Below are positions 1,200 through 47,300 of a DNA stretch of 64,000 nt, in pieces (positions within the stretch are counted from its first letter, which is position 1; every line of letters starts with the position of its first letter). Location of the stretch: positions 2,304,001 through 2,368,000 of the forward strand of contig CBDFLJ010000002.1 in NCBI GenBank assembly GCA_965248835.1, in the 5' to 3' direction. The position numbers were made by a program, and so were the translations under genes. Below the pieces are notes generated by a model. The model had not been told where the DNA came from. It did not search any database and saw only the letters and a program-made list of their open reading frames with translations. This DNA is from Alphaproteobacteria bacterium (GTDB lineage Bacteria > Pseudomonadota > Alphaproteobacteria > MPNO01).

Positions 1200-1436
1200 A
1201 TGACGGAGGTGCGCGTCCCCGAGGACATGTGGGACGCCACCAAGACGCCCGAGGCGGTGATCGTCAACTGGTACTACCGGGATCGCGCGACGGTCAAGGC
1301 GGGGGTGCCGCTGGTCGAGATCATGGTCGAGAAGACGCAGCTTGAAATCGTTTCGCCGGCAGCCGGCGTGCTGTCCATCCTCGCCCCACCGGAGACGGTG
1401 GTTACGCCGGGAACGGTCATCGCCCAGATCGGCTGA
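1200..1436 (+). CDS. Stand-alone lipoyl-domain (biotin/lipoyl carrier) protein
   Basis: 78 aa, LVEIMVEKTQLEIVSPAAGVL with the acceptor lysine. Confidence 0.85.
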   Translation: MTEVRVPEDMWDATKTPEAVIVNWYYRDRATVKAGVPLVEIMVEKTQLEIVSPAAGVLSILAPPETVVTPGTVIAQIG

Positions 1437-1437
1437 C

Positions 1438-2358
1438 ATGGACGGCGCGGCCACGAGGTTGTCGGCCCGACCGGTTGCGGCGGACGGAGACAGGGTCTTC
1501 TCCGCTTTCCCCCGCTGGCATTTCTGGGACGACCGCGCCGGCGGCGATCCCGAGGCCCGGCTAGGGCGCGACGCGGCGCTTGGCGAGGCAGTGGCACGAG
1601 CCGACTCACTGCCTACCTTCCGCCTTTGGCAGAACCAGCGCGCCCTGGTGGTAAGCCGGCGGGAGAGCCGCCTGCAACGGTTCGAGGCGGCCTCGCTGAG
1701 GCTCGCGCAGGAGGGCTGGCCAGTGCTGGTGCGCGACAGCGGCGGCGGTGCGGTGCCGCATGGCGAAGGAATACTCCACCTTTCGCTTGTGCTCCCCCGA
1801 AGCGACGCCCCGGCGTTCTCGATCGAGGCGCTTTACCGGGCGCTGTGCAAGCCGCTCCGAATTGCCCTGGGCGGCCTGGGTATCGAAACCGACCTCGGCG
1901 CGGTGCCTGGCGCTTTCTGCGATGGCCGCTTCAACCTCATCCATCGGGGCCGCAAGCTGGCCGGCACCGCGCAGCGGTGGCGGGGAGGACCGGCCGGGAC
2001 CGGCGTCATCGGGGGCTATGCCCTGGCTCACGCCCTCCTGGTCGTAGACCATGATCTCTCGGCGGCGAACGCCGCGCTCAACCGTTTCTATGCGCTTGTC
2101 GGGAGCGACCAGCGTGTCGATCCGCGCGCTTCGACCACCGTGCGCGCCTGTTTATGCGCCGGCGGGCGTCCCGTCGACCTGCCCCCCGGGAAGAGACTTA
2201 CCGATACCGTTCGCGCTGGCGTCGCCGCTGCAACAAAATTGATACTGGAGGGGCGGGAAGAAGGGTCCGATCGCGTCGATATGAGGCCGTGTCCCACAGC
2301 GTGGTGTGAGCCCTTAATTCATGATTTTCGGTACTGTGACGGTATCGTAGGATCGTAG
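1438..2358 (+). CDS. Lipoate-protein ligase A family protein (C-terminus runs into the inserted element)
   Basis: VRDSGGGAVPH, FCDGRFNL, RKLAGTAQRW motifs; last ~24 codons lie within the repeat starting at 2285. Confidence 0.85.
   Translation: MDGAATRLSARPVAADGDRVFSAFPRWHFWDDRAGGDPEARLGRDAALGEAVARADSLPTFRLWQNQRALVVSRRESRLQRFEAASLRLAQEGWPVLVRDSGGGAVPHGEGILHLSLVLPRSDAPAFSIEALYRALCKPLRIALGGLGIETDLGAVPGAFCDGRFNLIHRGRKLAGTAQRWRGGPAGTGVIGGYALAHALLVVDHDLSAANAALNRFYALVGSDQRVDPRASTTVRACLCAGGRPVDLPPGKRLTDTVRAGVAAATKLILEGREEGSDRVDMRPCPTAWCEPLIHDFRYCDGIVGS
2285..2307 (+). mobile_element. IS256-family-like terminal inverted repeat (left)
   Basis: ggccgtgtcccacagcgtggtgt matches the IS256 end at 35239-35261 (reverse complement) at 17/23 positions. 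Confidence 0.6.
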
Positions 2359-2661
2359 TGTCTCCCTGTATCACCGTGGTACTACAATGGCTTAGGGTCC
2401 CTGTCAATAGAGGATGGGACCGATTTGAATAACACAGATGTGGATCCTATGTCGCTGCATAGTTGCATTCAGGGAAGTGGGGAATGGAATTCGCCTTGGA
2501 ACATCCGTATGATCCTGATGGGCGAACAGGTGGGCCCTGTGAGCAACACAGAACCGGCACAATAGGTTCGTTTCTGTGAGGATTATCATAGGAATATGGA
2601 TGGCCATGCTTCCGAGATCGGGATCCAGTGTGTCGCAGCCCCTGCAAACCGTTTCGGGCGG

Positions 2662-3033
2662 ATGGCGACGATGAAGGAGGATGCCAGCGGGCGCCGCCAG
2701 CGCGCGGTGATGGCGACCGATGCGGAGTGGGAACGGATCGGCCGGGCGGCCGCGGCGAGCGGCATGGATCTGTCGCGCTTCGTGATCCATCGTGCGCTGG
2801 ATCGGGACCCTCTGCCGCCGGAGGTTCTGCGCCGGGCGGTGCGCGAGATGCTGGTGCTGTCCAGGCTGGAGGAGAGGCGGCTGCGCGAGGCCGGCGCCGG
2901 AGAGGCCTGGGAGGACGCCTGCGACGCGGTGGACGAATGGATCGACCGGGAGGGCATGCTGGACCGGCTGACCGATCCCGGCGCGGCGAACCGCTGGAAG
3001 GCGGCGGGGCCGGATGGGGAAGCCGGGCCGTGA
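2662..3033 (+). CDS. Ribbon-helix-helix / MobC-like protein 1
   Basis: RAVMATDAEWERIGRAAAASGMDLSRFV pattern; first gene of operon ending in relaxase. Confidence 0.7.
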   Translation: MATMKEDASGRRQRAVMATDAEWERIGRAAAASGMDLSRFVIHRALDRDPLPPEVLRRAVREMLVLSRLEERRLREAGAGEAWEDACDAVDEWIDREGMLDRLTDPGAANRWKAAGPDGEAGP

Positions 3034-3341
3034 CGGAGGAGGCGGGACGGCCCGGCAGGCGGCAGCGGAGCCTGCACTGCAACCCGGCGGAGCAAGCGAT
3101 GATCCGGGGGCGTGCGGCGGCGGCGGGGAAGACCGTGTCGCGCCATGTGCTGGCGCTTGCGCTCGCCGACGATCCGGACCGTCATCCCCTGGTGCTGAGG
3201 GAACAGGAACAGGCGGCGTTGCGGGACGGGGTCCGCGAGGTGCAGGCATTCGTGCAGGCTCTCCGGCGCGAGCTTCCGGGCGGCAGCGGGCTGAGCCTGC
3301 TGAGCGCGATCTCGGTCCTTGCACGGGAGCGGGCGGCATGA
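3030..3341 (+). CDS. Ribbon-helix-helix / MobC-like protein 2
   Basis: GTGA overlap with previous gene; RSLHCNPAEQAMIRGRAAAAGKTVSRHV. Confidence 0.7.
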   Translation: MTEEAGRPGRRQRSLHCNPAEQAMIRGRAAAAGKTVSRHVLALALADDPDRHPLVLREQEQAALRDGVREVQAFVQALRRELPGGSGLSLLSAISVLARERAA

Positions 3342-3826
3342 GACGAGCGCGGCGCGGCCGGAAGGCGAGCAAGCACATCTCGATCTCGGCGACGGACGCG
3401 GAATGGGAGACCGTTCGCCGCAACGCGGACCGGCGCGGTCTGTCGATCGCGCGCTACCTGGTGGGACTGGTGGAACGAGACGGTCCGGAAGAGGACGCGG
3501 GTCCAGCGCTGGCGCTCGCTGCGGACGAGCAGCGGGAGCTGCTGGAGGCGGTTCGGGAGGTTCGCGCGCTGATGCTGGAGGGGGAAGAAGCGGTTCCCCT
3601 GGTGCGCGACATGCAGGAGCGGATCGCGGTGCGGTTCGCCGCCTGGGCGTCTGCGATGGCCGGGTCGGGCCGCTCGGAAGAGCTGCGTGCGGCGCTCGCC
3701 TCGGTGCTGGGCGAGGACCGGGCCCGCATCGCCGCGGCCTCGGTCGTGCCCTCGGCCGCGAAGCGGGCGGACGTTCCGCAGGCCGGCGAAGGGAAGATGG
3801 ACACCCGCCAGGAACGGCTGTTGTGA
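3338..3826 (+). CDS. Ribbon-helix-helix / MobC-like protein 3
   Basis: ATGA overlap; HISISATDAEWETVRRNADRRGLSIARYL. Confidence 0.7.
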   Translation: MRRARRGRKASKHISISATDAEWETVRRNADRRGLSIARYLVGLVERDGPEEDAGPALALAADEQRELLEAVREVRALMLEGEEAVPLVRDMQERIAVRFAAWASAMAGSGRSEELRAALASVLGEDRARIAAASVVPSAAKRADVPQAGEGKMDTRQERLL

Positions 3827-3895
3827 GGCGGGCGCCATCTCTGCCGCCGACCTCCATGAATTGCAAGAGGTCGTCCACACGAGGGGAGGGGTAGC

Positions 3896-4585
3896 GTGAC
3901 TGCGGAGCGCGACGGCAAGAGTAGACGGACAGCGCAGCCGGACCTCCTGGCGAGCCTGCCGGAGGAGCGGCCGGCGCCCGGTATCGATCCGGCCGCGTTC
4001 GAGGAACTGCGGACCGCGGTGCAGGACATCGGGGAGCAATTGGCCGGGCTGAGGGAAGCGGCGTCCGCCGAACGGCAGGCGCGGGTGAGGCCGGAGGCGC
4101 TTGAGGCCTGGGGCGACCAACTCGTGACCCGGGTCGTCGAGGCTGGGCGGACAGCGGACGCGCCGGCGGCCGACGCGGCGGCCGCTGTAGCATTCCATAC
4201 CGGAAGGATCGAGGAAGCGGCGGCGAAGGCGGCGGCGGCAGAGCGCATCGATGGGGGGCTGGAAAGCACCGCGGACCGGTTCGCGGCCGCGGTCAAGGGG
4301 ATGGAGGAACGGCTTGCGGCAGACCGTTCGACGATCCGCGCGACCGCGGCGGGGATCGAGAGCGCCGTAACCAGGATCGAGACGGGACTCGGGAAGATGC
4401 GCGACGACACCAGCCGGGCGTCCGGTCGGGCCGATCGGAATCTCGAAGATATCCGGACACGCATGGCCGGGCTGCGGTTCGGCTGGCGGGCGTTTCTTGC
4501 GCCCTGGATCGTCTTCGTATTCATCCTGGGCATGGCGTTCGAGAGCCGTACACTTCTCCTCTACCGATGGCTGTGGGCCAGTTGA
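3896..4585 (+). CDS. Coiled-coil protein with C-terminal transmembrane segment (mobilisation accessory)
   Basis: GAGGGG RBS, Ala/Glu-rich helices, hydrophobic C-terminus; conserved in second copy. Confidence 0.7.
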   Translation: MTAERDGKSRRTAQPDLLASLPEERPAPGIDPAAFEELRTAVQDIGEQLAGLREAASAERQARVRPEALEAWGDQLVTRVVEAGRTADAPAADAAAAVAFHTGRIEEAAAKAAAAERIDGGLESTADRFAAAVKGMEERLAADRSTIRATAAGIESAVTRIETGLGKMRDDTSRASGRADRNLEDIRTRMAGLRFGWRAFLAPWIVFVFILGMAFESRTLLLYRWLWAS

Positions 4586-4651
4586 GCCGGCGGCGTTCCC
4601 CGTCTCGGCCTCTGCGGCGCACCGGCGCGGCCGTCGGCGAGGCCTGACCCG

Positions 4652-5500
4652 ATGGTCGCGACGGTCGTGGAGCTTCGTTCGTCCGCCGTGGCGGTGTTCT
4701 ATTACGAGCGCGACGGCTACTACGCCAGGAACGACCCTGAGCACCGCCAGGCGAGCTTCTGGCACGGTGATGCGGCGAAGGCGCTGGGGCTCAGGGCCCA
4801 TGTGCGTCCATCGCGCTTCGCATCGGTGCTGTCGGGCTACGTGCCCGGGACGGATCTCCGTCTCGGTCGGATGCGCGAGGGGCAGCACGACCACCGGCCC
4901 GGCTGGGACATCACCTTCTCGGCACCGAAGTCGGTGTCGCTGGAGGCGCTGGTGATGGGCGACCGGCGCGTGATCCGGGCTCATGACGAGGCGGTGCGCG
5001 CGACGCTCGACTGGGTGGAGGCGGAGCTTCTGGAGACCCGGGGCTGGGACCCGGCGACCCGCCGCCGTCCCCGGGTGAAGGCGAAGGGCATGGTGGTGGC
5101 GGGGTTCCGACATCTCGCGAGCCGCGACCAGGACCCGCAGCTGCACACCCATTGCGTGCTGGCCAACATGACGCGCACTGCCTCGGGGGGATGGCGGAGC
5201 GTGGAGCCGACGAAGATCCGTCGCCGCGAGAAGCTGATCGGCGCGTATTACCGGAACGAGCTCGCGCGGCGTCTTCAGGCGCTCGGCATGGCTGTCTCGC
5301 CGACCCTTGTGGGCAGGGTCCCGGGGTTCGAGCTTGCGGGCTACGAGCGCTCCTTCCTGGACGCGTTCTCGGGCCGGCGCCGCGAGATCCTCGCGCATCT
5401 GGAGCGTCTGGGGCTGCCCTACACGGCGGCGCATGCGCAGATGGCGGCGCTGCACACGCGCCGGCGCAAGGAGGACAGGACTCTCGCGGACCTCGTGCCG
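4652..5500 (+). pseudogene. MobF (TrwC/TraI-like) relaxase, truncated after the relaxase domain
   Basis: YY..YY tyrosines, DITFSAPKSVS, HUH motif H...DPQLHTH; homology with second copy stops at 5500. Confidence 0.88.
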
Positions 5501-6120
5501 CAACGGCGAGACGATCGCGCGGGCGGAGGCGCTCTCCGGGCAGGCGGAGCTGCCGGCGCGCACGCAGGAGCTTGTCGCTACGTGGCTCGAATATCATGCC
5601 AGGTGCGAACCGATCTGCCAGCAGATCCGGGACTGGCCCGCGCGGGTGGACGCACTGACGGCAGACTACCCCGAACCTCCCGCGAGGCTCGACTCCCTGA
5701 GGCACTGGCGGCAGCGGGCGGAGCCCCTGCTTGCCGAGGCCCGCGCGATGCTGGTGAAGGACGGCCCTCACGCGCGTCATCTGGACGCCATGCCGGGCGA
5801 ACGCGAGGCGCTGGCGGAGGGAACAAGCCGCCTCGACCGGGCGCTGCTTGCGGTCGAGGCGAGGGAGATGATCCTGCTGTCTGCGGTCGTGCAACGGTCG
5901 GCGGAGGAGACGGGTGGGATCGCCTTCGACGCGAGCGGCTATTCCGGGCTGATGGACCGGGCGCGCGCGCTCGATGCCAGGACCCATCTGCCGGAGGGTC
6001 CGCGCAACACGGTCCAGGACATTCTTGCCAGGGACGCACGCTGGGCGCGGGACCGGGACCGGGTCGGCGCATTCCTCGAGCGGGCCGCGGAGGTCGGGCG
6101 TGCGCGGAACGTTCGGACCG
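5501..6120 (+). pseudogene. Internal fragment of a helical protein, probably distal part of a large relaxase
   Basis: Open frame NGETIARAEAL...GAFLERAAEV with protein-like composition, no start, different frame from relaxase. Confidence 0.45.
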
Positions 6121-7701
6121 AGCCTGTATCCTCTGCTCCCCGAGAAGTTCCTTCACCTCGCGCAGCATGGTCGTCTTGCCGCTGCCGGCATGGCCCTGCA
6201 CGCCGATCACGAGGTCGTCCGACAGCAGCACCGTGCGGACCGCCCCCCTCTGGCCCCGGGTGAGACGCGACGCCCCGAGCCGCACCTCGACGGCATCTGC
6301 GCCGGCCAGCGCCAATCCCTTGCCGCGCCCCGCTCGCATCGACGCCAGCACGCTGCGCTCCGCGCGCACCGCCCGGTCGGTGACGAAGGCCCGGTCCATC
6401 CCCCGGCGTTCCGCCTCGATGAGCTCGCCGCCGCGCACAAGCCGTGCGATCGCCGCGTCGACCTCGGCCAGCGTGTAGCGCCCCGGTGCATGGCCCAGCG
6501 CCACCGCCCGGATCTCGGCCTCCGGGATCGCCGTGCGCCTCTCCGCAACATGCGCCACCGCCCGCGCCACCGCCTCAAGAACGCCCAGCTCCGGCTCCGG
6601 CGACAACGCCGCCGGCGCCCGAGAGCGAGAGCGCGTGGGGGGCGTTCCCGCCCATTCGGCAACGCCATCGCGGGGCAGCCTCGGCAGCGCCGGCGCGCGC
6701 TTGAGACCGCGGACCTCGTTGGGCGGCATGTCCGGCGCGGGCACGCGCGGCGATCTCACCCGCTCGCCGGTCAGCGGGTCGAGGGGCCGGGACGGCGTGA
6801 GAACCATTCTCTCCCGGACCGGCCCGAGCGCCCGTGCCCGCGCGCGCCATTCCGGCACGAGGTCCGCGAGAGTCCTGTCCTCCTTGCGCCGGCGCGTGTG
6901 CAGCGCCGCCATCTGCGCATGCGCCGCCGTGTAGGGCAGCCCCAGACGCTCCAGATGCGCGAGGATCTCGCGGCGCCGGCCCGAGAACGCGTCCAGGAAG
7001 GAGCGCTCGTAGCCCGCAAGCTCGAACCCCGGGACCCTGCCCACAAGGGTCGGCGAGACAGCCATGCCGAGCGCCTGAAGACGCCGCGCGAGCTCGTTCC
7101 GGTAATACGCGCCGATCAGCTTCTCGCTGCGACGGATCTTCGTCGGCTCCACGCTCCGCCATCCCCCCGAGGCAGTGCGCGTCATGTTGGCCAGCACGCA
7201 ATGGGTGTGCAGCTGCGGGTCCTGGTCGCGGCTCGCGAGATGTCGGAACCCCGCCACCACCATGCCCTTCGCCTTCACCCGGGGACGGCGGCGGGTCGCC
7301 GGGTCCCAGCCCCGGGTCTCCACAAGCTCCGCCTCCACCCAGTCGAGCGTCGCGCGCACCGCCTCGTCATGAGCCCGGATCACGCGGCGGTCGCCCATCA
7401 CCAGCGCCTCCAGCGACACCGACTTCGGTGCCGAGAAGGTGATGTCCCAGCCGGGCCGGTGGTCGTGCTGCCCCTCGCGCATCCGACCGAGACGGAGATC
7501 CGTCCCGGGCACGTAGCCCGACAGCACCGATGCGAAGCGCGATGGATGCACATGGGCCCTGAGCCCCAGCGCCTTCGCCGCATCACCGTGCCAGAAGCTC
7601 GCCTGGCGGTGCTCAGGGTCGTTCCTGGCGTAGTAGCCGTCGCGCTCGTAATAGAACACCGCCACGGCGGACGAACGAAGCTCCACGACCGTCGCGACCA
7701 T
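6121..7701 (-). pseudogene. MobF relaxase second copy, truncated just after helicase Walker A
   Basis: Same relaxase motifs plus IGVQGHAGSGKTT; sequence then switches to the antisense of the spacer. Confidence 0.88.
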
Positions 7702-7767
7702 CGGGTCAGGCCTCGCCGACGGCCGCGCCGGTGCGCCGCAGAGGCCGAGACGGGGAACGCCGCCGGC

Positions 7768-8442
7768 TCAACTGGCCCACAGCCATCGGTAGAGGAGAAG
7801 TGTACGGCTCTCGAACGCCATGCCCAGGATGAATACGAAGACGATCCAGGGCGCAAGAACCGCCCGCCAGCCGAACCGCAGCCCGGCCATGCGTGTCCGG
7901 ATGTCTTCGAGATACCGATCGGCCCGACCGGACTCCCGGCTGGTGTCGTCGCGCATCGTCCCGAGTCCCGTCTCGATCCTGGTTACGGCGCTCTCGATCC
8001 CCGCCGCGGTCGCGCGGATCGTCGAACGGTCTTCCGCAAGCCGTTCCTCCATCCCCTTGACCTCGGCCGCGAACCGGTCCGCGGTGCTTTCCAGCCCCCC
8101 ATCGATGCGCTCTGCCGCCGCCGCCGCCTTCGCCGCCGCTTCCTCGATCCTTCCGGTATGGAATGCTACAGCGGCCGCCGCGTCGTCCGCCGGCGCGTCC
8201 GCTGTCCGCCCAGCCTCGACGACCCGGGTCACGAGTTGGTCGCCCCAGGCCTCAAGCGCCTGCCGTTCGCCGGACGCCGCTTCCCTCAGCCCGGCCAATC
8301 GCTCCCCGATGTCCTGCACCGCGGTCCGCAGTTCCTCGAACGCGGCCGGATCGATACCGGGCGCCGGCCGCTCCTCCGGCAGGCTCGCCAGGAGGTCCGG
8401 CTGGGCTGTGTGTCTACTCTTGCCGTCGCGCTCCGCAGTCAC
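7768..8442 (-). CDS. Coiled-coil/TM mobilisation accessory protein (copy 2)
   Basis: Near-identical to 3896-4585. Confidence 0.7.
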   Translation of the reverse strand: MTAERDGKSRHTAQPDLLASLPEERPAPGIDPAAFEELRTAVQDIGERLAGLREAASGERQALEAWGDQLVTRVVEAGRTADAPADDAAAAVAFHTGRIEEAAAKAAAAAERIDGGLESTADRFAAEVKGMEERLAEDRSTIRATAAGIESAVTRIETGLGTMRDDTSRESGRADRYLEDIRTRMAGLRFGWRAVLAPWIVFVFILGMAFESRTLLLYRWLWAS

Positions 8443-8511
8443 GCTACCCCTCCCCTCGTGTGGACGACCTCGTGCAATTCATGGAGGTCGGCGGCGGAGA
8501 TGGCGCCCGCC

Positions 8512-9000
8512 TTACAACAGCCGGTCCTGGCGGGTGTCCATCTTCCCCTCGCCGGCCTGCGGAACGTCCGCCCGCTTCGCGGCCGAGGGCACGACCGAGG
8601 CCGCGGCGATGCGGGCCCGGTCCTCGCCCAGCACCGAGGCGAGCGCCGCACGCAGCTCTTCCGAGCGGCCCGACCCGGCCATCGCAGACGCCCAGGCGGC
8701 GAACTGCACCGCGATCCGCTCCTGCATGTCGCGTACCAGGGGAACCGCTTCTTCCCCCTCCAGCATCAGCGCGCGAACCTCCCGAACCGCCTCCAGCAGC
8801 TCCCGCTGCTCGTCCGCAGCGAGCGCCAGCGCTGGACCCGCGTCCTCTTCCGGACCGTCTTGTTCCACCAGCCCCACCAGGTAGCGCGCGATCGACAGAC
8901 CGCGCCGGTCCGCGTTGCGGCGAACGGTCTCCCATTCCGCGTCCGTCGCCGAGATCGAGATGTGCTTGCTCGCCTTCCGGCCGCGCCGCGCTCGTCTCAT
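8512..9000 (-). CDS. RHH/MobC-like protein 3 (copy 2)
   Basis: Near-identical to 3338-3826. Confidence 0.7.
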   Translation of the reverse strand: MRRARRGRKASKHISISATDAEWETVRRNADRRGLSIARYLVGLVEQDGPEEDAGPALALAADEQRELLEAVREVRALMLEGEEAVPLVRDMQERIAVQFAAWASAMAGSGRSEELRAALASVLGEDRARIAAASVVPSAAKRADVPQAGEGKMDTRQDRLL

Positions 9001-9308
9001 GCCGCCCGCTCCCGTGCAAGGACCGAGATCGCGCTCAGCAGGCTCAGCCCGCTGCCGCCCGGAAGCTCGCGCCGGAGAGCCTGCACGAATGCCTGCACCT
9101 CGCGGACCCCGTCCCGCAACGCCGCCTGTTCCTGTTCCCTCAGCACCAGGGGATGACGGTCCGGATCGTCGGCGAGCGCAAGCGCCAGCACATGGCGCGA
9201 CACGGTCTTCCCCGCCGCCGCCGCACGCCCCCGGATCATCGCTTGCTCCGCCGGGTTGCAGTGCAGGCTCCGCTGCCGCCTGCCGGGCCGTCCCGCCTCC
9301 TCCGTCAC
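8997..9308 (-). CDS. RHH/MobC-like protein 2 (copy 2)
   Basis: Same protein as 3030-3341. Confidence 0.7.
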   Translation of the reverse strand: MTEEAGRPGRRQRSLHCNPAEQAMIRGRAAAAGKTVSRHVLALALADDPDRHPLVLREQEQAALRDGVREVQAFVQALRRELPGGSGLSLLSAISVLARERAA

Positions 9309-9676
9309 GGCCCGGCTTCCCCATCCGGCCCCGCCGCCTTCCAGCGGTTCGCCGCGCCGGGATCGGTCAGCCGGTCCAGCATGCCCTCCCGGTCGATCCA
9401 TTCGTCCACCGCGTCGCAGGCGTTCTCCCACGCCTCTCCGGCGCCGGCCTCGCGCAGCCGCCTCTCCTCCAGCCTGGACAGCACCAGCAGCTCGCGCACC
9501 GCCCGGCGCAGAACCTCCGGCGGCAGAGGGTCCCGATCCAGCGCACGATGGATCACGAAGCGCGACAGATCCATGCCGCTCGCCGTTGCCGCCCGGCCGA
9601 TCCGTTCCCACTCCGCATCGGTCGCCATCACCGCGCGCTGGCGGCGCCCGCTGGCATCCTCCTTCATCGTCGCCAT
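9305..9676 (-). CDS. RHH/MobC-like protein 1 (copy 2)
   Basis: Near-identical to 2662-3033. Confidence 0.7.
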   Translation of the reverse strand: MATMKEDASGRRQRAVMATDAEWERIGRAATASGMDLSRFVIHRALDRDPLPPEVLRRAVRELLVLSRLEERRLREAGAGEAWENACDAVDEWIDREGMLDRLTDPGAANRWKAAGPDGEAGP

Positions 9677-10031
9677 CCGCCCGAAACGGATTGCAGCAGT
9701 TGCGACACACCGGATCCCGAGTTCGGAGATATATCCATCGATATTCCTATGATAATCCTCACAGAGACGAACGTATTGTGCCGGTTCTGTGTTGCTCACA
9801 GGGCCAACCTGTTCCTCCATCAGGATCATACGGATGTTCCAGGGAGAATTCCATATCCCACTTCCCCGAATGCAATTCCTTAGCGACACAGGATCCACAT
9901 CTGTGTTATTCAAATCGGCCCCTGTCCTCTATTGACAGGGACCCTAAGCCATTGTAGTACCACAGTGATACAGGGAGACACTACGACCCTACAGCACCAT
10001 CCCAGTACCGAAAATCGTGAATTTAGGGCTC

Positions 10032-10054
10032 ACACCACGCCGGGGAACACAACC
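10032..10054 (-). mobile_element. IS256-family-like terminal inverted repeat (right)
   Basis: acaccacgccggggaacacaacc matches the IS256 end acaccacgtctggggacacaacc (35239-35261) at 20/23 positions. Confidence 0.65.
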
Positions 10055-10134
10055 GGCCGCGTGAGCGCGACCCGGGCATTGCCCCCCCTTCAACACCCTC
10101 GATCTGATGGGTTATTCTTCTTAGCGTTCGCGTT

Positions 10135-10473
10135 ATGGTTGATTTGATGGGAGGATTCGAAGTGGAGACGAGAGCCATCCGGTTTACGCCGGCCTACCGG
10201 CGAGCTTTTTTTGACTCGTGCTGGCGACCCGCGCGTTCGATCGGAGTGACCTGGGGCGGCCTCATTATTGGTATGCTGCGGCAGCGACACAATCGGTACG
10301 GCTGGGAGGCGGACCGGACCCAGCAAGCCAATCTCGACTACGCGACCGGGAACTACTGGGAACGGCTCGAGGACGCCCAAGCAGCTATATTGCGGGCTGC
10401 TGAAGCCTCGGCGCGAGCCCGGACAAACTCCGAAACGCCTGCGAAACGCTCGGCCCTACGCTACGCGGCATAG
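10135..10473 (+). CDS. Hypothetical protein
   Basis: 112 aa ORF with possible GGGAGG RBS before GTG; no recognisable motif. Confidence 0.35.
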   Translation: MVDLMGGFEVETRAIRFTPAYRRAFFDSCWRPARSIGVTWGGLIIGMLRQRHNRYGWEADRTQQANLDYATGNYWERLEDAQAAILRAAEASARARTNSETPAKRSALRYAA

Positions 10474-10607
10474 CGGAACCGCTGTGTTTGGCCCCGAAGA
10501 ACGGGGCCGACACGGTGCGCAAATGGGAAACCGGGCGGCTCGATCCGTCCGGACCCATCCCGCTGATCTACCGCGAGCTTCGCACCGGCTGGCGGCCCAG
10601 CCCATAG
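10414..10607 (+). pseudogene. Degenerate XRE/HTH DNA-binding protein
   Basis: Unlisted frame reads SPDKLRNACETLGPTLRGIAEPLCL..ADTVRKWETGRLDPSGP; no start codon. Confidence 0.5.
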
Positions 10608-10740
10608 AGTCGGGGTTTGAGCGATAATCGCCCCTAGATCCGACGTGCACGACGCAGGAACGCCGAAGGAGCCCTTGTGGGGGTGTGTTGGGGTAGCGAA
10701 GCTCAATGTGGTCTCTCTTGACGCGGCGTGGACGCGCGGA

Positions 10741-11379
10741 TCAGGATACTGACCGAGAGTTGGCCTTTTGGTATTCGACCGGGCGTCGAGCAACCACGTT
10801 TCCTCCCGCATCGTGCACGATGTCGGCGAGCTGGCACTTCACTAGATGGCCAATCTTGACCTTGGCCTTCTCGGATGCGGCGTCTGTCAGTTCAGCGCTG
10901 TGCTGCCGCCTGGGGGGAGTGATGACTCTTACTGGTTTGGACAACTGGCTCTCCAGGACTCGTATCGCCGGCGCCAAATCGGAATCCTGAGAGATCAGCA
11001 GGGCGCGATCGTATTCGGCCTTGATAGCTCGCGAGAGCATCGCGACCGCTATGTTGACGTCAGTCTCCTTTTCCTCGTGCGCTTTCCATTGATGACCGCA
11101 CTTGAGGCACTTGCGGTCCTTCTCCTTGAATTTCCCGAGAATGACGGTGACACCCGCTGCTTGCAGTGCGCGCACATACGTCCGGTGTCTCCTATAGGCG
11201 CCGGGCAGCCAGGTGGCGTAGGCAGAAAAATAGTAGACATCGGTAAGCAACTGCGTGCGCCGGAGCACGAACGCATCGGATAGAGCCCACAGATCAAGCC
11301 ATTTCAGATGTGGTGCTCTGAGATTGAGAATGGCGTGATACAGGTTGAAGCCATCGATGAAGGCAGCTACGCGCTCCAC
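10741..11379 (-). CDS. NYN (LabA/DUF88, PIN-like) domain ribonuclease with CxxC insert
   Basis: AFIDGFNLYH, EEKETDVNIA, LISQDSDLAP motifs; CLKCGH. Confidence 0.9.
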   Translation of the reverse strand: MERVAAFIDGFNLYHAILNLRAPHLKWLDLWALSDAFVLRRTQLLTDVYYFSAYATWLPGAYRRHRTYVRALQAAGVTVILGKFKEKDRKCLKCGHQWKAHEEKETDVNIAVAMLSRAIKAEYDRALLISQDSDLAPAIRVLESQLSKPVRVITPPRRQHSAELTDAASEKAKVKIGHLVKCQLADIVHDAGGNVVARRPVEYQKANSRSVS

Positions 11380-11391
11380 AGCACTACTTCC

Positions 11392-11449
11392 AAAAAAGAG
11401 AAACCCCACGAGCCGGAACCCGTGGGGTCCGCACGGCCGTACCGTGCGG
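11392..11449 (-). promoter_or_regulatory. Structured leader/putative small RNA: two tandem hairpins plus U-tract upstream of the NYN gene
   Basis: Minus strand CCGCACGG-tacgg-CCGTGCGG, then ACCCCACGGG-ttccgg-CTCGTGGGGT, then TTCTCTTTTTT. Confidence 0.7.
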
Positions 11450-11529
11450 GATGACCAGCGTGTTTATCGTATATTTTTCCGATTTGGGCAAGGGGCCCCT
11501 TCAAACCTCCTAGCCTAGCTCTCCCCTAA

Positions 11530-11850
11530 GAGCGGTTCCGGGAAGTTGAGATTCACGAGCAAGGGCTTGGCCGGGTCAAGCGTCGCAGCATGATGCGGAT
11601 CATGGCGAGGTGGATGAAGGCGACGACAGACCGGACGTGGCGTTCGAAGTCGCGCGCCAGCCGGCGGCAGCGGACGATCCAGGCGAAGCTGCGCTCGACG
11701 ATCCAGCGCTTCGGCAGCACCTCGAAGCGCGGCACGTCGTTGCGCTTGACGATCTCCAGCCGCCAGGCGCCGGTCTTCGCCACCACGGCCGCCATCTTCG
11801 GTCCCTGGTAGCCGCCGTCGGCGTAGATCACCTCGATGAATGGAAAGCGG
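11530..11850 (-). mobile_element. IS5-family (IS1031/IS427-like) transposase C-terminal fragment with right end
   Basis: YADGGYQG, LPKRWIVERSFAW..CRRLARDFE. Confidence 0.85.
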
Positions 11851-11856
11851 CCGCGC

Positions 11857-11970
11857 GCAGTGCTCGCAGCCCACCATGAGCCGGCTGGAGAACGCGCCCT
11901 CGCGGATCGAGGTGGCGCGCATGACGGCCGCTCTGGTCGACATCTTCTGCCGCTCCTTCGCCCGCCCCGC
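11857..11970 (+). mobile_element. IS1380-family transposase internal fragment
   Basis: CSQPTMSRLENAP, also present in the IS1380 fragment at 39835-40334. Confidence 0.75.
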
Positions 11971-12027
11971 GAGCGGCCGATCGCCTGGATCTCGGCCCCC
12001 CTTTTCCGCATCCAGGCCGTCACGGCC

Positions 12028-12388
12028 TCACGCGGCGCGCGGCGCGACCTCGCGCTCGATCCTGCGGCGCACGGTGCGTTCGGCCACGTCGAGATCGTAG
12101 CGGGTCTGCAGGTTGATCCAGAAATCCGGCGTCGTGCCGAAGTAGCGCCCGAGCCTGAGCGCGGTATCGGTGGTGACGGCGCGGCGCCCGCGGACGACGT
12201 CGTTCAGCCGCGGCCGCGACACCTTGATCGCCTTGGCGAGGCCGTAGACGCTGATCTCCAGCGGGGCCAGGAACGCGTCGCGCAAGATCTCGCCCGGATG
12301 GACCGGCGGCAGGCGCCGTCCGGTTACGACGTCGGAGAAATCGACGTTGCGGCTGTCGATGTCCTCGCGCTTGATGGTCATGGTCACG
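12028..12388 (-). CDS. higA: HigA-family antitoxin
   Basis: VHPGEIL, DTALRLGRYFGTTPDFWINLQTRYDL. Confidence 0.9.
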
Positions 12389-12392
12389 CTCC

Positions 12393-12674
12393 TCAATGAT
12401 AGTCGACGATCTCGACGTCCCAGGCCTCGCCGTCGCGCCACGTGAAACAGATGCGCCATTGATCGTTGACGCGGATGCCATGCCGGCCTTGGCGGTTGCC
12501 CCGCAGCGCTTCAAGCCGATTGCCTGGCGGCACGCGAAGATCGTCGAGTCGCCCGGCCGCATCGATCATCAGGAGCTTGGCCCTAGCCCGCCGCTGGATC
12601 TGCGCCGCCAAGCCGCGCACGGCGTACCCGGCGAATATGGCAGCGGTACGCTTGTCGGCGAAGCTTTTGATCAC
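12393..12674 (-). CDS. higB: HigB (RelE/ParE superfamily) toxin
   Basis: LRVPPGNRLEALRG..GIRVNDQWRICF..VEIVDYH. Confidence 0.92.
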   Translation of the reverse strand: MIKSFADKRTAAIFAGYAVRGLAAQIQRRARAKLLMIDAAGRLDDLRVPPGNRLEALRGNRQGRHGIRVNDQWRICFTWRDGEAWDVEIVDYH

Positions 12675-12679
12675 GCTTC

Positions 12680-12708
12680 ATCGTAACGCCAACCATTACG
12701 CCGGTCAA
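12680..12708 (-). promoter_or_regulatory. Sigma70 promoter with overlapping operator palindrome for higBA
   Basis: Minus strand TTGACC-17 nt-TACGAT, 5 nt before GTG; CGTAA...TTACG palindrome. Confidence 0.7.
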
Positions 12709-12837
12709 CGTTCTCGTATCGGAAGTCGGTACGTATCGGATATCGGTACGGTAGGAACCCACTTCGACACCGCTCACTGTACGACGGTCCCCTGGTCCAG
12801 AGACGACGAGGACTTCAAGAAAACAGTGATCGCCACA

Positions 12838-13223
12838 GAACTATGCCGAAAGTTGGTGATGGGCCGATCAGGCGGCGCGTTGGATTTGCTTGAGTCCGTC
12901 CTTGAACGTCACTCCCTGGATGAGCTTGGCGCGGTGGTTCGAGCCATCGAGCTTGCACCATTTCCGGCGGGCGCTCGACAGCAGCTTGAAGACCATGGCG
13001 AGCGCCGTTTTGCGCGACAGGCAGCCCTTGATCCCGGTGGTTCTCAGCCGCACCGTGGCGAAGGAACTTTCAATCGGATCATCGAAACCCGGTCTGGATG
13101 CAAAACGAAACAACCCCTTCTTCATACATGGCGTATCCTTCCTTCTTGGATATCGGCGACCTCGACAATCGCCGGGGGCCGCCGCCTTCACATCACGCCG
13201 TCACCAGGATCCAGCCATAGCTC
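12838..13223 (-). mobile_element. Internally deleted IS256-family element retaining both ends
   Basis: Imperfect IRs gaactatgccgaaagttggtga / tcaccaggatccagccatagctc; fused ORF ..FDDP|IESSFATVRLRT..VTFKDG. Confidence 0.75.
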
Positions 13224-16837: not shown

Positions 16838-17980
16838 CTAGTGGATAAAATCTAACAGACGATTCCCTTGTCCGAGCGTATGTGCGAGTCTGCGGGCATG
16901 CGCACAGGGATTACCTTCGAGGTTTGCGTCGCCGACCGTGCTCGTCTGGAAGCGGTCGTGGCGGACAGGAACAGCCCGCAGAAGCATGTCTGGCGGGCCG
17001 GGATCATTTTGGCCACGGCTGCCGGCGCGGGGACGGTCGAGATCATGCGCCGGACCGGGAAGTCGAAGCCTTGCGTCTGGCGGTGGCAGGAACGGTTCAT
17101 GGCCGAGGGCGTCGATGGCCTGCTGCGGGACAAGACCCGGCCTTCGCGCATTCCGCCGCTCGAACCCGGTGTCGCCTTGCGCATCGTCGATCTGACCCTG
17201 ACCGATCCGCCCGCCGAGGCGACCCACTGGACGGCCGCCATGATGGCCGGGAAGCTCGGCGTTTCCGTCTCTTCCGTGCAACGCATTTGGCGCGCCCACG
17301 GGCTCCAGCCTCATCGGGTGCGCCAGTTCAAGCTCTCCAAAGACGCCAACTTCGCCGACAAGCTGCGCGACGTTGTCGGGCTCTATGTCGACCCGCCCGC
17401 CCATGCCATCGTGCTCAGTGTCGACGAAAAGAGCCAGATCCAGGCCCTCGATCGCACGCAGCCCGGCCTGCCGCTAAAGAAGGGCCGCGCCGGAACGATG
17501 ACCCACGATTACAAGCGGCATGGCACGACCACGCTGTTCGCCGCCCTGAACGTCCTCGACGGCACGGTCATCGGCCGCAACATGCAGCGTCATCGCCATC
17601 AAGAATTCATCCGCTTCCTCAACACGGTCGAGGCCGGAACGCCCGCCGGCACGGTCATCCATGCCATTCTCGACAACTACGCCGTCCACAAGCACCCCAA
17701 GGTCCGACGCTGGCTCGACCGTCATCCGCGCTGGACCTTTCACTTCACACCGACTTCCTGTTCCTGGCTCAACGCCGTGGAAGGCTTCTTCGCAAAACTC
17801 GCCAAGCGCCGGCTCAAACGCGGCGTCTTCCACTCCGTCGTTGACCTTCAAGCCGCCATCAACCGTTTCGTCGCCGAGCATAACGCCAGCGAGGCCAAGC
17901 CATTTCGCTGGACCGCGGACCCGGACAAAATCATCTCCGCCGTCAAACGCGGGCATCAAGCGTTAGATTCCATCCACTAG
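16838..17980 (+). mobile_element. Intact IS630-family element
   Basis: Ends ctagtggataaaatctaac / gttagattccatccactag (17/19 inverted match); CTAG/TA at both ends. Confidence 0.93.
16898..17980 (+). CDS. IS630-family transposase
   Basis: VDEKSQIQAL, THDYKRHGTT, ILDNYAVH, SWLNAVEGFF. Confidence 0.95.
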   Translation: MRTGITFEVCVADRARLEAVVADRNSPQKHVWRAGIILATAAGAGTVEIMRRTGKSKPCVWRWQERFMAEGVDGLLRDKTRPSRIPPLEPGVALRIVDLTLTDPPAEATHWTAAMMAGKLGVSVSSVQRIWRAHGLQPHRVRQFKLSKDANFADKLRDVVGLYVDPPAHAIVLSVDEKSQIQALDRTQPGLPLKKGRAGTMTHDYKRHGTTTLFAALNVLDGTVIGRNMQRHRHQEFIRFLNTVEAGTPAGTVIHAILDNYAVHKHPKVRRWLDRHPRWTFHFTPTSCSWLNAVEGFFAKLAKRRLKRGVFHSVVDLQAAINRFVAEHNASEAKPFRWTADPDKIISAVKRGHQALDSIH

Positions 17981-22272: not shown

Positions 22273-22477
22273 CCGCAACCACCGAAGCATTCGCGCGGCC
22301 GCAGAGCAGCCAGTTCGATTGCATGACCGCCGGCATGATGCGCGCCGAGGGGAGGCCGTCGCCACGACGAATGCCAACGATTTCGTGGGATGAGCGAGGT
22401 CATTGACCCGTGGATGAGAACAGCCAACCTGCCACGCAACAATGGCTGGACAGAGACCAGGAAACGGAAGACTGGCC

Positions 22478-24655
22478 GTGAACATACAGGCACACGACGA
22501 GCTTAAAGCCAAAATCTGGGAAATCGCGAACCGGCTCAGGGGGCCGTACCGGCCTCCTCAATATCGCTTGGTCATGCTTCCCATGGTCGTCTTGCGTCGG
22601 CTCGATTGTGTCCTGGAGCCGACCAAGGATGCCGTTCTGAGGCGGCGCGATCAGCTGGAGGCGCAGGAGATGCCCGAAGCGGCGATGGATAGCCTGCTCG
22701 GCAAGGCCTCTGACCCCCGGCGGAAGCATCCGCTCTACAACACGAGCCCCTACACCTTTGCCCGGTTGCTCGGCGATGCCGAGAACATCGCGCCGAACCT
22801 CGTGTCGTACATCAACGGCTTTTCCCCGACCGCGCGGCGCATCTTCGAGCGCTTTAAGTTTAGCGATCAGATCGAGAAGCTCGACGCCAGCAATCGTCTC
22901 TTCACCATCGTCAAGGCCATGACCGATGTCGATCTTCACCCCGACAGGATCGACAACCTCCAGATGGGCTACCTGTTCGAGCATCTGGTGATGCGCTTCA
23001 ACGAACAGGCCAACGAAGAAGCCGGGGATCACTTCACGCCGCGCGAGGTCATCCGCCTCATGGCGAACCTCATCTATACTGGCGAACAGGATGTCTATAA
23101 GCCCGGCATCTACCGCACGATCTACGATCCGGCGTGCGGAACCGGCGGCATGCTTTCCGAGTCGGAGAAGCTGATCCTCTCCCAGAACGCGCGGGCAAAT
23201 CTCGCCCTATTCGGCCAGGAATACAACGACGAGGCCTGGGCAATCTGCTGCTCCGACATGCTCATCAAGGACGAGGACACGGCCAACATCGTCCTCGGCG
23301 ACACCCTGGGAGACGGCAAGACCAGGGACGGCTTCGAGGGAGTACGCTTCCACTACCTGATGGCGAACCCACCCTTCGGCGTCGAATGGAAGGACCAGAA
23401 GGACACGGTCGAACGCGAGCACAAGACCATGGGCCTATCGGCCCGGTTCGGCGCTGGGCTCCCGGCCATCAACGACGGCTCGTTCCTCTTCCTTCAGCAC
23501 ATGATTTCCAAGATGCATCCCTATGAGGAAGGGGACGAGGACCAGCCCGGTTCCAAGATCGCCATCGTCTTCAACGGCTCGCCGCTCTTTTCCGGAGACG
23601 CCGGATCGGGGCCGTCCAATATCCGCCGCTGGATCGTCGAGAACGACTGGCTCGACGCCATCGTGGCGCTGCCCGACCAGCTTTTCTACAACACCGGCAT
23701 CTTCACCTACGTCTGGCTCGTGACCAACCGCAAGCCACCGGAGCGGCGCGGCAAGGTGCAGCTTATCGACGGCACCCGCTTCTTCCAGAAGATGAAGAAG
23801 AGCCTCAACAACAAGCGCAACGAGATCGCCGAGGACCAAATACGCCATCTTACCCGCGTCTATGGCAACAACCGGGACGGCGAGACGGCCGAGGTGGAGA
23901 TCGACGGCGAGACCGAGACACGCGTCATCTCCCGCATATTCGAGAACCGCGAGTTCGGCTTTCTCAAGGTGACGGTCGAACGACCCTTGCGGATGAACTT
24001 CGAAGCGACGCCCGAGCGCATCGCGAAGCTCGACGAGCAGACCACCTTCGCGAATCTGGCGACATCGAAGAAGCGGAAGGATGCGGCGGCGGTCGAACGC
24101 GAGATCGCGGAGGGGCGGAAGCGGCAGGACGCCATCCGCGCCGCGCTCGCGACGCTCGAAGGCAAGGGACGCTACATGGACCGGGAGGCGTTCGAGGCCG
24201 ATGTGGTGGAGGCCGCGAAGCGCACCGGCATCAAGATTCTCGACCCGATCAGGAAGGCGATCTTCGCGGCCCTCGGTGAACGCGATGCGGACGCCGAGAT
24301 TTGCCGGGACAGCAAGGGGCGGCCGGAGCCGGACAGCGAGCTTCGGGACACCGAGAACATTCCCTTGCCGCCCGGCACGGCGCCGCCCCTGCCCCTGGAC
24401 TTCGGACCGGACAAGCCCAACGACCGGCTGGTCGAAGCCTTCCGCGACGGCATCGACGCGTACATCGCGCGCGAGGTGCTGCCCCATGTGCCCGATGCCT
24501 GGGTGGAGTACGACAAGACCAAGGTCGGCTACGAAATCCCGATCAACCGGCATTTCTACGTCTACAAGCCGCCGCGCCCGCTCGATCAAATCGAGGCGGA
24601 CATCGCCAAGCTCGAAGGGGAGATCGCCGGGCTGCTAAAGGGGCTGGTGGCATGA
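22478..24655 (+). CDS. hsdM: Type I restriction-modification methyltransferase subunit
   Basis: GDHFTPREVI, YDPACGTGGML, NPPF, LPDQLFYNTGI. Confidence 0.96.
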   Translation: MNIQAHDELKAKIWEIANRLRGPYRPPQYRLVMLPMVVLRRLDCVLEPTKDAVLRRRDQLEAQEMPEAAMDSLLGKASDPRRKHPLYNTSPYTFARLLGDAENIAPNLVSYINGFSPTARRIFERFKFSDQIEKLDASNRLFTIVKAMTDVDLHPDRIDNLQMGYLFEHLVMRFNEQANEEAGDHFTPREVIRLMANLIYTGEQDVYKPGIYRTIYDPACGTGGMLSESEKLILSQNARANLALFGQEYNDEAWAICCSDMLIKDEDTANIVLGDTLGDGKTRDGFEGVRFHYLMANPPFGVEWKDQKDTVEREHKTMGLSARFGAGLPAINDGSFLFLQHMISKMHPYEEGDEDQPGSKIAIVFNGSPLFSGDAGSGPSNIRRWIVENDWLDAIVALPDQLFYNTGIFTYVWLVTNRKPPERRGKVQLIDGTRFFQKMKKSLNNKRNEIAEDQIRHLTRVYGNNRDGETAEVEIDGETETRVISRIFENREFGFLKVTVERPLRMNFEATPERIAKLDEQTTFANLATSKKRKDAAAVEREIAEGRKRQDAIRAALATLEGKGRYMDREAFEADVVEAAKRTGIKILDPIRKAIFAALGERDADAEICRDSKGRPEPDSELRDTENIPLPPGTAPPLPLDFGPDKPNDRLVEAFRDGIDAYIAREVLPHVPDAWVEYDKTKVGYEIPINRHFYVYKPPRPLDQIEADIAKLEGEIAGLLKGLVA

Positions 24656-29500: not shown

Positions 29501-29654
29501 TCTCGTTCTGGACGAACTGTTCATCGCGCGAATGGAGGGCAACGAGGGGATCTTCTCCAGGGTGATGACGGACACCGAGTTTCGTTCGGCTGCGCAGGAA
29601 CATCTTGCCCAAGAGATATTCCGTCGCGTTCGCGAGGAGCAAGCTGCTGAGTGA
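26583..29654 (+). CDS. hsdR: Type I restriction endonuclease subunit R
   Basis: AELKNP, QHSAGSGKS, DEAHSSQ, FTATP, KYQTGFDQP. Confidence 0.96.
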   Translation: MSGHTERAFETAIEAGLTSFGGYETRSPSAYEEALALFPDDVSGFLRDSQLAKWEALETLLGPKTAATVLDSLSKELDVKGTLHVLRHGFKCYGKTFRMAWFRPNTRMNPEAAENYAKNRLTTTRQVAFASVLKKADGKNRRCIIDVTLAVNGIPVVTAELKNPLTGQRAAHAMRQYEDERDGRDLLFAFKKRALVHFAVDTDEVWMTTRLRGRETDFLPFNRGNNYGAGNPPVGGNWKTHYLWDEVLQADSLLEILQRFMHLEATEKQVKTDKGARTVRTETMIFPRYHQLDAVRKLVVHAKAHGAGRNYLIQHSAGSGKSNSIAWLAHRLASLHDEQNEKVFHSVIVVTDRRVLDQQLQATIYQFEHKTGVVEKIDEDTRQLARALSQGTPIVITTIQKFPFISQALSTLEEKGSGVKIDTAGKRFAVIVDEAHSSQSGETTTALKGMLNKEGIEAAIAAQLSDEEDHDLSDDAKAAVLRDALQRARQPNLSFFAFTATPKFKTKALFDEPGSSGASPFHEYTMRQAIEEGFIMDVLQNYTTYKRFFGLIKQVEDDPDVPRREAAKALTRYMELHPVNIEQVVSVIVEHFRLNVMHELGGRAKAMVVTGSRLAAVKYKLAFDRYIKEQGYTGIRSLVAFSGTVEDPDLPGSSYTEVGMNDGLAESELPETFERDDYRVLLVAEKYQTGFDQPLLQTMYVVKRLAGVQAVQTLSRLNRIAPGKSRTFVLDFANEEDDIYQAFKPYYETTPVGENADPHRLSELQHRLLEWAIFTPADVAAFAEVWYRGKRDHSATDHRVMNAVLDAVVQRFQDCEEDEREEFRGQLTAYRNLYAFLSQIIPYQDIDLERLYAFVRNLLAKLPPPGDGRAFVLDDEVALRFYRLQQVHEGSIGLSEGEPEPLKGPTDVGTARAKDEEVTLSSLIDRLNERFGTDFNEADQLFFDQIRASAAKDENIAEAARANSFADFAAYLDLVLDELFIARMEGNEGIFSRVMTDTEFRSAAQEHLAQEIFRRVREEQAAE

Positions 29655-34913: not shown

Positions 34914-34995
34914 GTGCCGTCCTCTCTCGATTTCGAAAAACCGATCGCCGAACTCGAAGGCAAGATCGAGAAATTGCGCCATCTGCCGGACGGCC
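34914..34995 (+). pseudogene. accA: N-terminal fragment of acetyl-CoA carboxylase carboxyltransferase alpha
   Basis: LDFEKPIAELEGKIEKLRHL; cut off by IS256 remnant. Confidence 0.75.
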
Positions 34996-35261
34996 GAGAA
35001 GCCGATCATCTCGCGCAAAAGGTCGGCGTCGGAACTCTTTTCCAACAGCGCGCGCAGGGTCATCATGTCGTTGGCGGTCATCGTGGTTCTCCTCCGGTCG
35101 GGTGGACTCTGCAAGCCCAACCCTAAACCGGTACCGCGATGGCCTCCGCTATGGATAACCGGCTCGCCGCCGCCAGACCCTTGGCGGTCGCTGCGGCGAG
35201 CCGCTTACCCACAGCTACCAGAGGCAGCCAGAGCTCCTACACCACGTCTGGGGACACAACC
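34996..35261 (-). mobile_element. IS256-family left end with transposase N-terminus
   Basis: MMTLRALLEKSSDADLLREMIGF; end ggttgtgtccccagacgtggtgtag. Confidence 0.85.
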
Positions 35262-43483: not shown

Positions 43484-43670
43484 ATGTCCCGCGACCGCAA
43501 CGGCACCTTCGTGCCTGTGATCGTGCCCAAGGGCGAACGGCGTCTCGACGGCTTCGACCACCGCATCCTGTCGCTCTATGCGCGCGGCATGACGGTACGA
43601 GAGATCCGCGGCCATCTGAAGGAGCTCTACGGCGTCGAGGTTTCGCCGGACCTGATCAGCCGGGTCCCGG
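43484..43670 (+). mobile_element. IS256-family transposase internal fragment
   Basis: RDRNGTF, ILSLYARGMTVREIRGHLKELYGVEVSPDLISRV. Confidence 0.85.
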
Positions 43671-47279: not shown

Positions 47280-47300
47280 CGCGGCGCGACCGCCCGGGAC

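Follow-up and report, generated by a model that had tools for sequence, protein, structure and literature searches.

The window analyzed here (C2:2304001-2368000, 64,000 nt) belongs to the 4.89-Mb, two-contig genome of an alphaproteobacterium and contains an inverted repeat made of two mobilization modules of the MOBF (TrwC-type) family, which stand as mirror images of each other at window positions 2289-10050. The palindrome is internal to a 2.6-Mb contig. Its arms (2289-5508 and 6845-10050) are separated by 1336 nt and are complementary in four blocks, at 90% for the outermost 126 nt and at 97%, 99%, and 99% for the others. They thus diverge by 1-10%, to which indels are added, as in a coiled-coil gene coding for 229 residues in one arm and 224 in the other. 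The genes of the two copies converge, and the modules are therefore tail-to-tail. The first-pass annotation of this DNA had described a head-to-head fusion; it was right about the two ends in inverted orientation and wrong about the order of the modules. The present report concerns these modules and the joints that link their outer ends to the surrounding DNA, which a recurrent boundary suggests to be the work of the relaxase that such modules encode.

An intact module is about 7 kb long and comprises a leader, three ribbon-helix-helix (RHH) accessory genes, a gene for a coiled-coil membrane protein, and a gene for a TrwC/TraI-type relaxase-helicase of ~1600 residues. This gene set is that of an ordinary MOBF module. 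In the left copy, the leader (2308..2661, plus strand) starts with the first base, G, after GGTGT, at the position where homology starts in six genomic copies and in relatives. It consists of ~350 nt of non-coding DNA with a low G+C content (0.52-0.54), which putatively provides the 3' half of an origin of transfer (oriT), plus a promoter. The contrast in base composition, 0.51-0.55 in the leaders versus ~0.70 elsewhere, agrees with the description of the first-pass annotation. The leader is followed on the plus strand by RHH gene 1 (2662..3033, 123 residues, NikA-like, 23.2 bits for a Pfam cut-off of 27, open frame checked), RHH gene 2 (3030..3341, 103 residues), and RHH gene 3 (3338..3826, 162 residues). 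The latter two were identified by Pfam scan and open frame, and each overlaps the preceding gene by 4 nt. The NikA-like Pfam scores of the three genes (18.5-23.2 bits) are all below the cut-off. The coiled-coil protein (3896..4585, plus strand, 229 residues) has a hydrophobic C-terminus and matches no Pfam family. The right copy presents the same series on the minus strand: a leader (9677..10031) whose first module base is 10031, open frames for RHH genes 1 (9305..9676), 2 (8997..9308), and 3 (8512..9000), and the 224-residue coiled-coil protein (7768..8442; Pfam scan and open frame).

The relaxase genes occupy the center of the palindrome. The left gene codes for residues 1 to ~292, corresponding to the TrwC domain only (4652..5534, plus strand), and the break at 5534 was placed where the alignment to the relaxase gene of locus L018 (nt 649-876) ends. 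After an internal deletion of ~3 kb, the gene resumes with residues 1302-1509 (5499..6122, plus strand), which match residues 1301-1508 of the full-length homologue P0002 with 96% identity. The right gene (6123..7701, minus strand) codes for residues 1-527, comprising the TrwC domain followed by the beginning of the P-loop helicase, according to Pfam and alignment. The two genes abut without a spacer at 6122|6123, and the center is asymmetric. Membership of the MOBF family was supported by score: PF08751 (TrwC) gave 248.5 and 258 bits for the left and right copies, respectively, for a cut-off of 25. The relaxase domain matched the TrwC structure 1omh of the PDB (E 4.5e-45) and F TraI structures (E ~1e-38), and pCU1 TraI also aligned. 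Both tyrosine pairs (YY...YY) and the histidine motif ...DPQLHTH were in register with TrwC in the HMMER alignment. The intact relatives of these relaxases contain 1590-1810 residues and carry AAA_30 and UvrD_C domains; ~2,500 close homologues are on record. Neither relaxase of the window has a complete C-terminal P-loop helicase. Both are pseudogenes, and the two module copies are dead relics for which no function is expected. The gene content proposed by the first-pass annotation (three RHH genes, a coiled-coil gene, and a MOBF relaxase domain) was thus recovered, except that neither relaxase is intact. Elsewhere in the genome, there was no TrwC domain beyond the pair in the window, and the sole trace of a coupling protein was a 45-residue fragment.

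The homology between the two arms extends to a 23-nt motif that had been recognized in the first-pass annotation as the terminus of an insertion sequence (IS) of the IS256 family. This assignment proved correct. The reference 23-mer (35239-35261, minus strand) is matched at 17 of 23 positions by the outer 23 nt of a terminal inverted repeat ending in ...GTGGTGT at the left end (2285..2307, plus strand), and at 20 of 23 positions at the right end (10054-10032, i.e. 10032..10054 on the minus strand), where the tip, GGTT, resembles that of a left inverted repeat. In the 64 kb, no further site on either strand reached 17/23, and the next best score, 16/23, was found once. The 23-mer belongs to a truncated IS end (34993..35261, minus strand), which holds the inverted repeat, a leader, and ~30 transposase codons, is 81% identical to nt 1-270 of an intact IS in L032, and has a boundary, 35261, that is found again at five further genomic positions. 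L-numbers designate loci in other genomes or metagenomes, except for L058 and L059, which are from this genome. The cognate IS is intact in L023 and L032, where it is 1.45 kb long, has both inverted repeats, and codes for a 398-residue Mutator/IS256-type transposase; the L032 copy is flanked by an 8-bp duplication. The IS is ordinary, as are the modules. In the genome under study, fragments of the cognate IS were found but no intact copy. A loose pattern of the motif had six matches in 4.9 Mb, corresponding to four module ends and two IS ends. Solo ends and forms of ~110-140 bp resembling miniature inverted-repeat transposable elements occur elsewhere in this genome. PF00872 had 10 matches there; the intact IS256-family copies among them, four to five in number and 1391 bp long, possess ends of a clearly different sequence. 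A 79-residue IS256-family piece at 43484-43723 (plus strand; Pfam Transposase_mut positions 82-141) is separate from the fragment at 34993-35261.

Where modules are joined to this repeat, the flanks retain its outer 23 nt only, the crossover being internal to the repeat (23|24) rather than terminal. Each arm of the palindrome is joined to an IS repeat of its own, and the two repeats differ, their tips being GGTT and GGCC. In every copy, the 5-6 nt located between GTGTCCC and GTGGTGT differ, and the flanks beyond the IS tip are unrelated. As stated in the first-pass annotation, no transposase gene is present between the ends of the palindrome and no target-site duplication is visible at its flanks, which differ from each other. 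A frame for a lipoate-protein ligase A/B catalytic domain (1342-2358, plus strand) runs into the IS-repeat remnant and the module end, which may have taken the place of its original 3' end.

Comparison of module ends from other locations revealed what the joints have in common. We collected 29 ends, 21 from the same family (6 from this genome and 15 from other genomes or metagenomes) and 8 from a sister family (L024-L033), in which the modules are ~8 kb long, the relaxase is 53-55% identical, and the RHH genes are convergent with the relaxase gene. Directly outside the module, GTGT was present at 28 of the 29 ends and GGTGT at 27, the eight sister-family boundaries having been placed by seeking GGTGT where similarity stops (by eye, 7 of these 8 loci had this boundary). 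Position -6 was T at 19 of 28 ends. The first module base (+1) was G at 24 of 28 ends and A at the other four. The sequence around the module boundary reads ...CGTGGTGT|G. The one end without the motif, L026, has an IS256-like flank ending in ...GAGTGG. In this genome, the module end recurs six times with unrelated flanks outside; five of these six ends are in IS256-type repeats, and o2264 is a variant form. Over the whole collection, the flanks consisted of the outer parts of IS256-family repeats at eight ends, the outer 38-48 nt of IS3-family repeats at three ends, and diverse genes at the rest. The sequence ...AAGGTGT|ATTCC is found in native copies of the IS3-family element, both in the genome under study and in L018. 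The IS256-type repeat likewise contains a similar sequence, ...CGTGGTGT|A, at positions 16-23. At least 10 related ends devoid of the IS256 motif abut other DNA directly at GGTGT. Several genomes hold two or three modules drawn from both families. Inspection by eye showed a hairpin across the boundary in one subgroup only. Leader DNA was detected in 0 of 40 relatives, and a metagenome scan with RHH gene 1 returned just 7 loci.

The GGTGTG sequence at the boundary could have been contributed by the module or by the DNA into which it was inserted. When the flanking genes were read toward the outside, a reverse frame starting with CAC ACC remained open for more than 120 codons in 8 of the 10 gene flanks tested, and Pfam confirmed this frame in 4 of the 5 flanks that were scanned (PhyH positions 124-212; 2OG-FeII_Oxy from residue 1, with H-T-D as its first residues; TrwB_AAD_bind 17-387 from residue 1; UvrD_C_2). 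GGTGTG is thus read in frame as His-Thr in truncated host genes that have been cut at their N-termini. Since the frame stays open and is confirmed by the Pfam domains, these data indicate that GGTGTG is supplied by the target rather than by the module. Among the targets, at L038:5894-7504 (minus strand), is the gene for the coupling protein of a different conjugative element, which a module interrupts immediately ahead of the Walker A motif. Further flanks derived from conjugation genes were a relaxase-helicase C-terminus in L051 and, by eye, a DUF2493-like gene in L052. These cases hint that co-resident transfer elements are frequent targets of the modules.

On the module side of the joint, perfect tandem duplications of 15, 20, and 44 nt begin at the first module base at 3 of 21 ends (L018:7703-7732, L057, and L023), and a fourth end, L039, has a (GT)n run at this base. 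The duplications suggest that a DNA end existed at exactly the first module base. The far side of the module did not show comparable precision. The genomic copies share the left end and stop after 285, 434, 454, or 1185 nt, or inside the palindrome; a copy in the other contig (C1, ~2264326) retains the far end. No inverted copy of the motif was found at the far end in the C1 copy, L017, L018, L020, L022, or L023. The right ends of full copies differ. A fixed right end at ...GGGCC was considered for L017, L018, and the C1 copy and was abandoned, since L018 and L071 share 122 nt past the limit seen in L017 and L071 extends 122 nt beyond this candidate. The missing halves of the interrupted genes were absent from 6-7 kb of sequence on the right-hand side of the module, and the missing PhyH half was not among 43 matches in the two genomes concerned. 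No 8-9 bp duplication was visible by eye at the truncated copies o1752 and o632. The rest of the IS was present neither beside the four truncated genomic copies nor in L018.

We propose that the module boundary is the nick site (nic) of oriT and that the joints were made by the relaxase, through strand transfer between nic and nic-like sites for which IS ends were favored pseudo-sites. We assign to this reading a probability of roughly 60%. The identity of GGTGT|G with nic, the role of the relaxase as joint-maker, and the strand polarity are what we infer from comparison of sequences: GGTGT|G is taken as nic because the nic core of the F plasmid matches it and 28 of 29 boundaries agree. An F oriT oligonucleotide reads ...GCGTGGGGTGT^GGT, in which ^ is nic (PMC2504302). 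The module boundary, ...CGTGGTGT|G, resembles the corresponding ...GCGTGGGGTGT^GG of F, and the relaxase domain also matches that of TraI.

According to this reading, a relaxase of the HUH superfamily would join its own nic to a nic-like site by strand transfer, and this could occur by two routes. In the first, the transferred strand would be integrated at a nic-like site and the 3' side would then be resolved imprecisely. In the second, the carrier of the module would already be chromosomal, for example following IS-mediated fusion, and a deletion would take place between a nearby pseudo-site and the true nic. In both cases, the 5' junction would be precise and the far side imprecise. Either route would lead to a precise left end and a variable right end, loss of target halves, absence of the rest of the IS, and absence of target-site duplications. 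The modules would be joined to the outer 23 nt of the IS256 repeat because this repeat contains the nic-like ...CGTGGTGT|A at positions 16-23, with position 23 as the joining point. The palindrome would result from two such copies, between which a subsequent illegitimate event created the head-on fusion at 6122|6123.

TrwC of plasmid R388 offers the closest precedent. This enzyme inserts transferred DNA into a target of 17 bp and also into human sites of similar sequence, a reaction that requires both tyrosines and in which the second tyrosine has been proposed to cut the recipient site before strand exchange (PMC3264647). The core of the TrwC target that is indispensable comprises 6 nt on the 5' side and 2 nt on the 3' side of nic (PMC3264647). 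In the modules, the conserved part of the junction is ~6 nt on the flank (5') side and 1 nt on the module (3') side, in agreement with the TrwC scheme, in which the 5' half of the target is joined to the 5' end of the transferred strand. Both systems have a MOBF HUH relaxase with two catalytic tyrosines and short nic-like targets. They differ in that the work on TrwC is confined to the laboratory and yields a complete cointegrate with two hybrid oriTs, whereas the modules are natural chromosomal footprints, known from sequence alone, with one precise junction and an F-like core, GGTGT|G. Relaxase-mediated site-specific joining was already known, and what is new here is the pattern of natural, repeated, one-sided joints at a nic-like pentamer. 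No description of natural relaxase-integration footprints appeared in the part of the literature that our search reached. To our knowledge, there are no natural examples of relaxase integration into nic-like sequences. Integration by relaxases has been proposed to enable plasmids to colonize hosts in which their replication fails.

Several observations weigh against the proposal that the joints are relaxase joints at nic. The implied polarity is unusual, since GGTGT|G is on the gene-sense strand, implying that the mobilization genes would be transferred first, the opposite of the situation in F and R388; relative to F, the orientation of the genes with respect to the nicked strand appears to be reversed. 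The relaxase-binding side of nic would consist of flank DNA, which is not conserved beyond ~6 nt. The boundary counts for the eight sister-family ends are not motif-independent, owing to the manner in which these ends were placed. The frequency of a short motif does not account for the bias toward IS ends (five of the six in this genome), as there are 426 GTGGTGT and 8008 GGTGT sites genome-wide. Possible reasons for this preference are the longer CGTGGTGT match, proximity following IS-mediated fusion, and the exposure of single strands at copy-out/paste-in ends. The second hybrid junction expected from full integration of the TrwC type was not found, and the right flanks do not continue the targets. 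A circular or plasmid form with the native oriT was not found either: the best plasmid relative was 36% identical in a tblastn search (5000 best records), and blastn detected plasmid relatives only as short matches at ~70-77%. Finally, F TraI is reported to be unable to perform oriT-specific recombination (PMC3264647).

IS91 and IS200/IS605-type elements are inserted next to a short conserved flank and have asymmetric ends and no target-site duplication, and insertion of the modules 3' of a short conserved sequence recalls this behavior. The module could accordingly be the cargo of another single-strand or rolling-circle system, for example one in which an HUH transposase, IS91-like or of another type, works in trans and inserts 3' of GGTGT, in which case its own relaxase would be uninvolved. 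IS91-like genes are present near one copy (right flank of L038, by eye). Set against this, no such transposase is conserved beside the modules, the conserved unit being composed of mobilization genes only and containing no Y1 or Y2 transposase gene. Moreover, the boundary motif equals the F-type nic core, the enzyme of the module is a conjugative relaxase, the far end is neither fixed nor defined, and the targets are not restored, unlike those of IS91/ISCR and IS200/IS605 elements. We consider this explanation improbable.

An equally improbable explanation starts from the excess of IS-repeat flanks and treats the piece of IS repeat as a selected, functional part of oriT, acquired once and serving as a binding-site mimic for the relaxase or an accessory protein. 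The repeat does supply the 8-nt CGTGGTGT, whose likeness to the nic region of F exceeds that of most other flanks. A single acquisition is difficult to reconcile with the 5-6 nt spacer, which differs in each copy, and with the unrelated outer flanks, both of which are as expected for separate IS copies. In addition, two different IS families are involved and many intact modules have no IS repeat.

The first-pass annotation had favored a non-autonomous mobilizable transposon with IS256-type ends, moved by an IS256-family transposase in trans, and had cited TnGBS elements as a precedent. The precedent is sound, as TnGBS-type integrative and conjugative elements associate DDE transposition of the Mutator superfamily with conjugation (PMC3942029). 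In the modules, the repeat is a genuine outer part of an IS256-family repeat and is correctly oriented to read inward, the palindrome offers two ends in inverted orientation, and the motif occurs at 8 of 29 ends and at 5 of 6 in this genome, in excess of the prediction from GTGGTGT sites. On the other side, the modules keep no more than 23 nt of the repeat, which is broken internally; single modules lack a second repeat, and no 8-9 bp duplication was found at the palindrome. TnGBS-type elements encode their own transposase and have two ends, whereas the module has neither. The search for a distal end and a linked cognate transposase disclosed no inverted motif and IS fragments only; the genome has no intact cognate transposase, and the ends of the intact IS256-family copies that it does contain are different. 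In other module copies, an IS3-family end takes the place of the IS256-type one. The decisive result is that many related modules lack the motif (at least 10 ends have no IS256 motif and 3 more have an IS3-family end, i.e. at least 13 ends). An IS256-capped transposon, or a family of such elements movable in trans, is therefore not supported; we regard this explanation as largely refuted and very improbable. An origin of the palindrome as an assembly artefact, or of the boundary as a chance limit left by ordinary recombination, is barely credible: chimeric long reads can yield palindromes and mosaic plasmid backbones have recurrent module limits, but the arms differ by 1-10% and indels around an asymmetric center inside a 2.6-Mb contig, and the same boundary pentamer is found at 28 of 29 ends.

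If the boundary is a relaxase joint at nic, a further parallel is the T-DNA of Agrobacterium, which shares a precise relaxase-bound 5' joint, variable 3' truncation, short duplications at junctions, and loss of target DNA. The parallel is incomplete, since VirD2 is MOBQ-like and acts on a eukaryotic target, whereas the modules would pass from bacterium to bacterium, with the 5' joint at a nic-like target. A more far-reaching version of the proposal, which we put forward tentatively and consider doubtful, is that the ~7-kb MOBF modules constitute a widespread "relaxase transposon" that multiplies in alphaproteobacterial chromosomes, with the relaxase as its sole recombinase, nic-like TGGTGT sites as the targets to which the 5' end of the transferred strand is ligated, a T-DNA-like far side, and the ends of copy-out/paste-in elements of the IS256 and IS3 families as hot spots. 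Were this so, the integrase activity known for TrwC only in the laboratory would here have left its first footprint in nature. If GGTGT|G is nic, the modules provide dozens of natural junctions from which to deduce the target rules, the polarity, and what the IS ends contribute. They would also serve as a warning to annotators that a partial IS end beside cargo genes need not mark a transposon.

An empty site was sought with the flanks of the palindrome (1-2288 and 10052-13000) in five related genomes, which returned only scattered pieces at 64-85%. Another sequence that meets the IS256-family repeat exactly at GTGGTGT is a 2.24-kb repeat, designated X, which carries two P4-type tyrosine integrase genes and is present at C2:644775-647015, C2:1725107-1727047, and C1:2213603-2215843 (L058, L059). 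In these three places, its upstream end is joined to the inner part of the repeat, once beside a tRNA gene. Our first idea was that X represented the native half of oriT. The simpler interpretation is that of a variant IS repeat adjoining an integrase gene; the joint may otherwise be a reciprocal one of the nic type. The possibility that X is a group II intron was discarded, as Rfam found no intron.

Broken mobile elements abound throughout the window. Debris at 10741-12459 (minus strand), 16868-17980 (plus strand), and 51029-51715 (plus strand) includes an NYN-domain gene, a DDE_Tnp_1 fragment with a helix-turn-helix gene, a DDE_3/IS630-like transposase, and a DUF772 transposase domain. At 46123-46230 and 47179-47286 (plus strand) stands a 108-nt direct repeat (93%) that corresponds on the opposite strand, by eye, to the conserved C-terminal part of a tyrosine recombinase, and its two copies are probably remnants of two integrase genes. 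The window also contains type I restriction-modification genes for an HsdM-like methylase and an HsdR-like helicase/nuclease (22442-24655 and 26583-29654, plus strand) and, at 60751-62255 (minus strand), a HipA-like kinase with an upstream helix-turn-helix partner, forming a toxin-antitoxin pair of the HipBA type.

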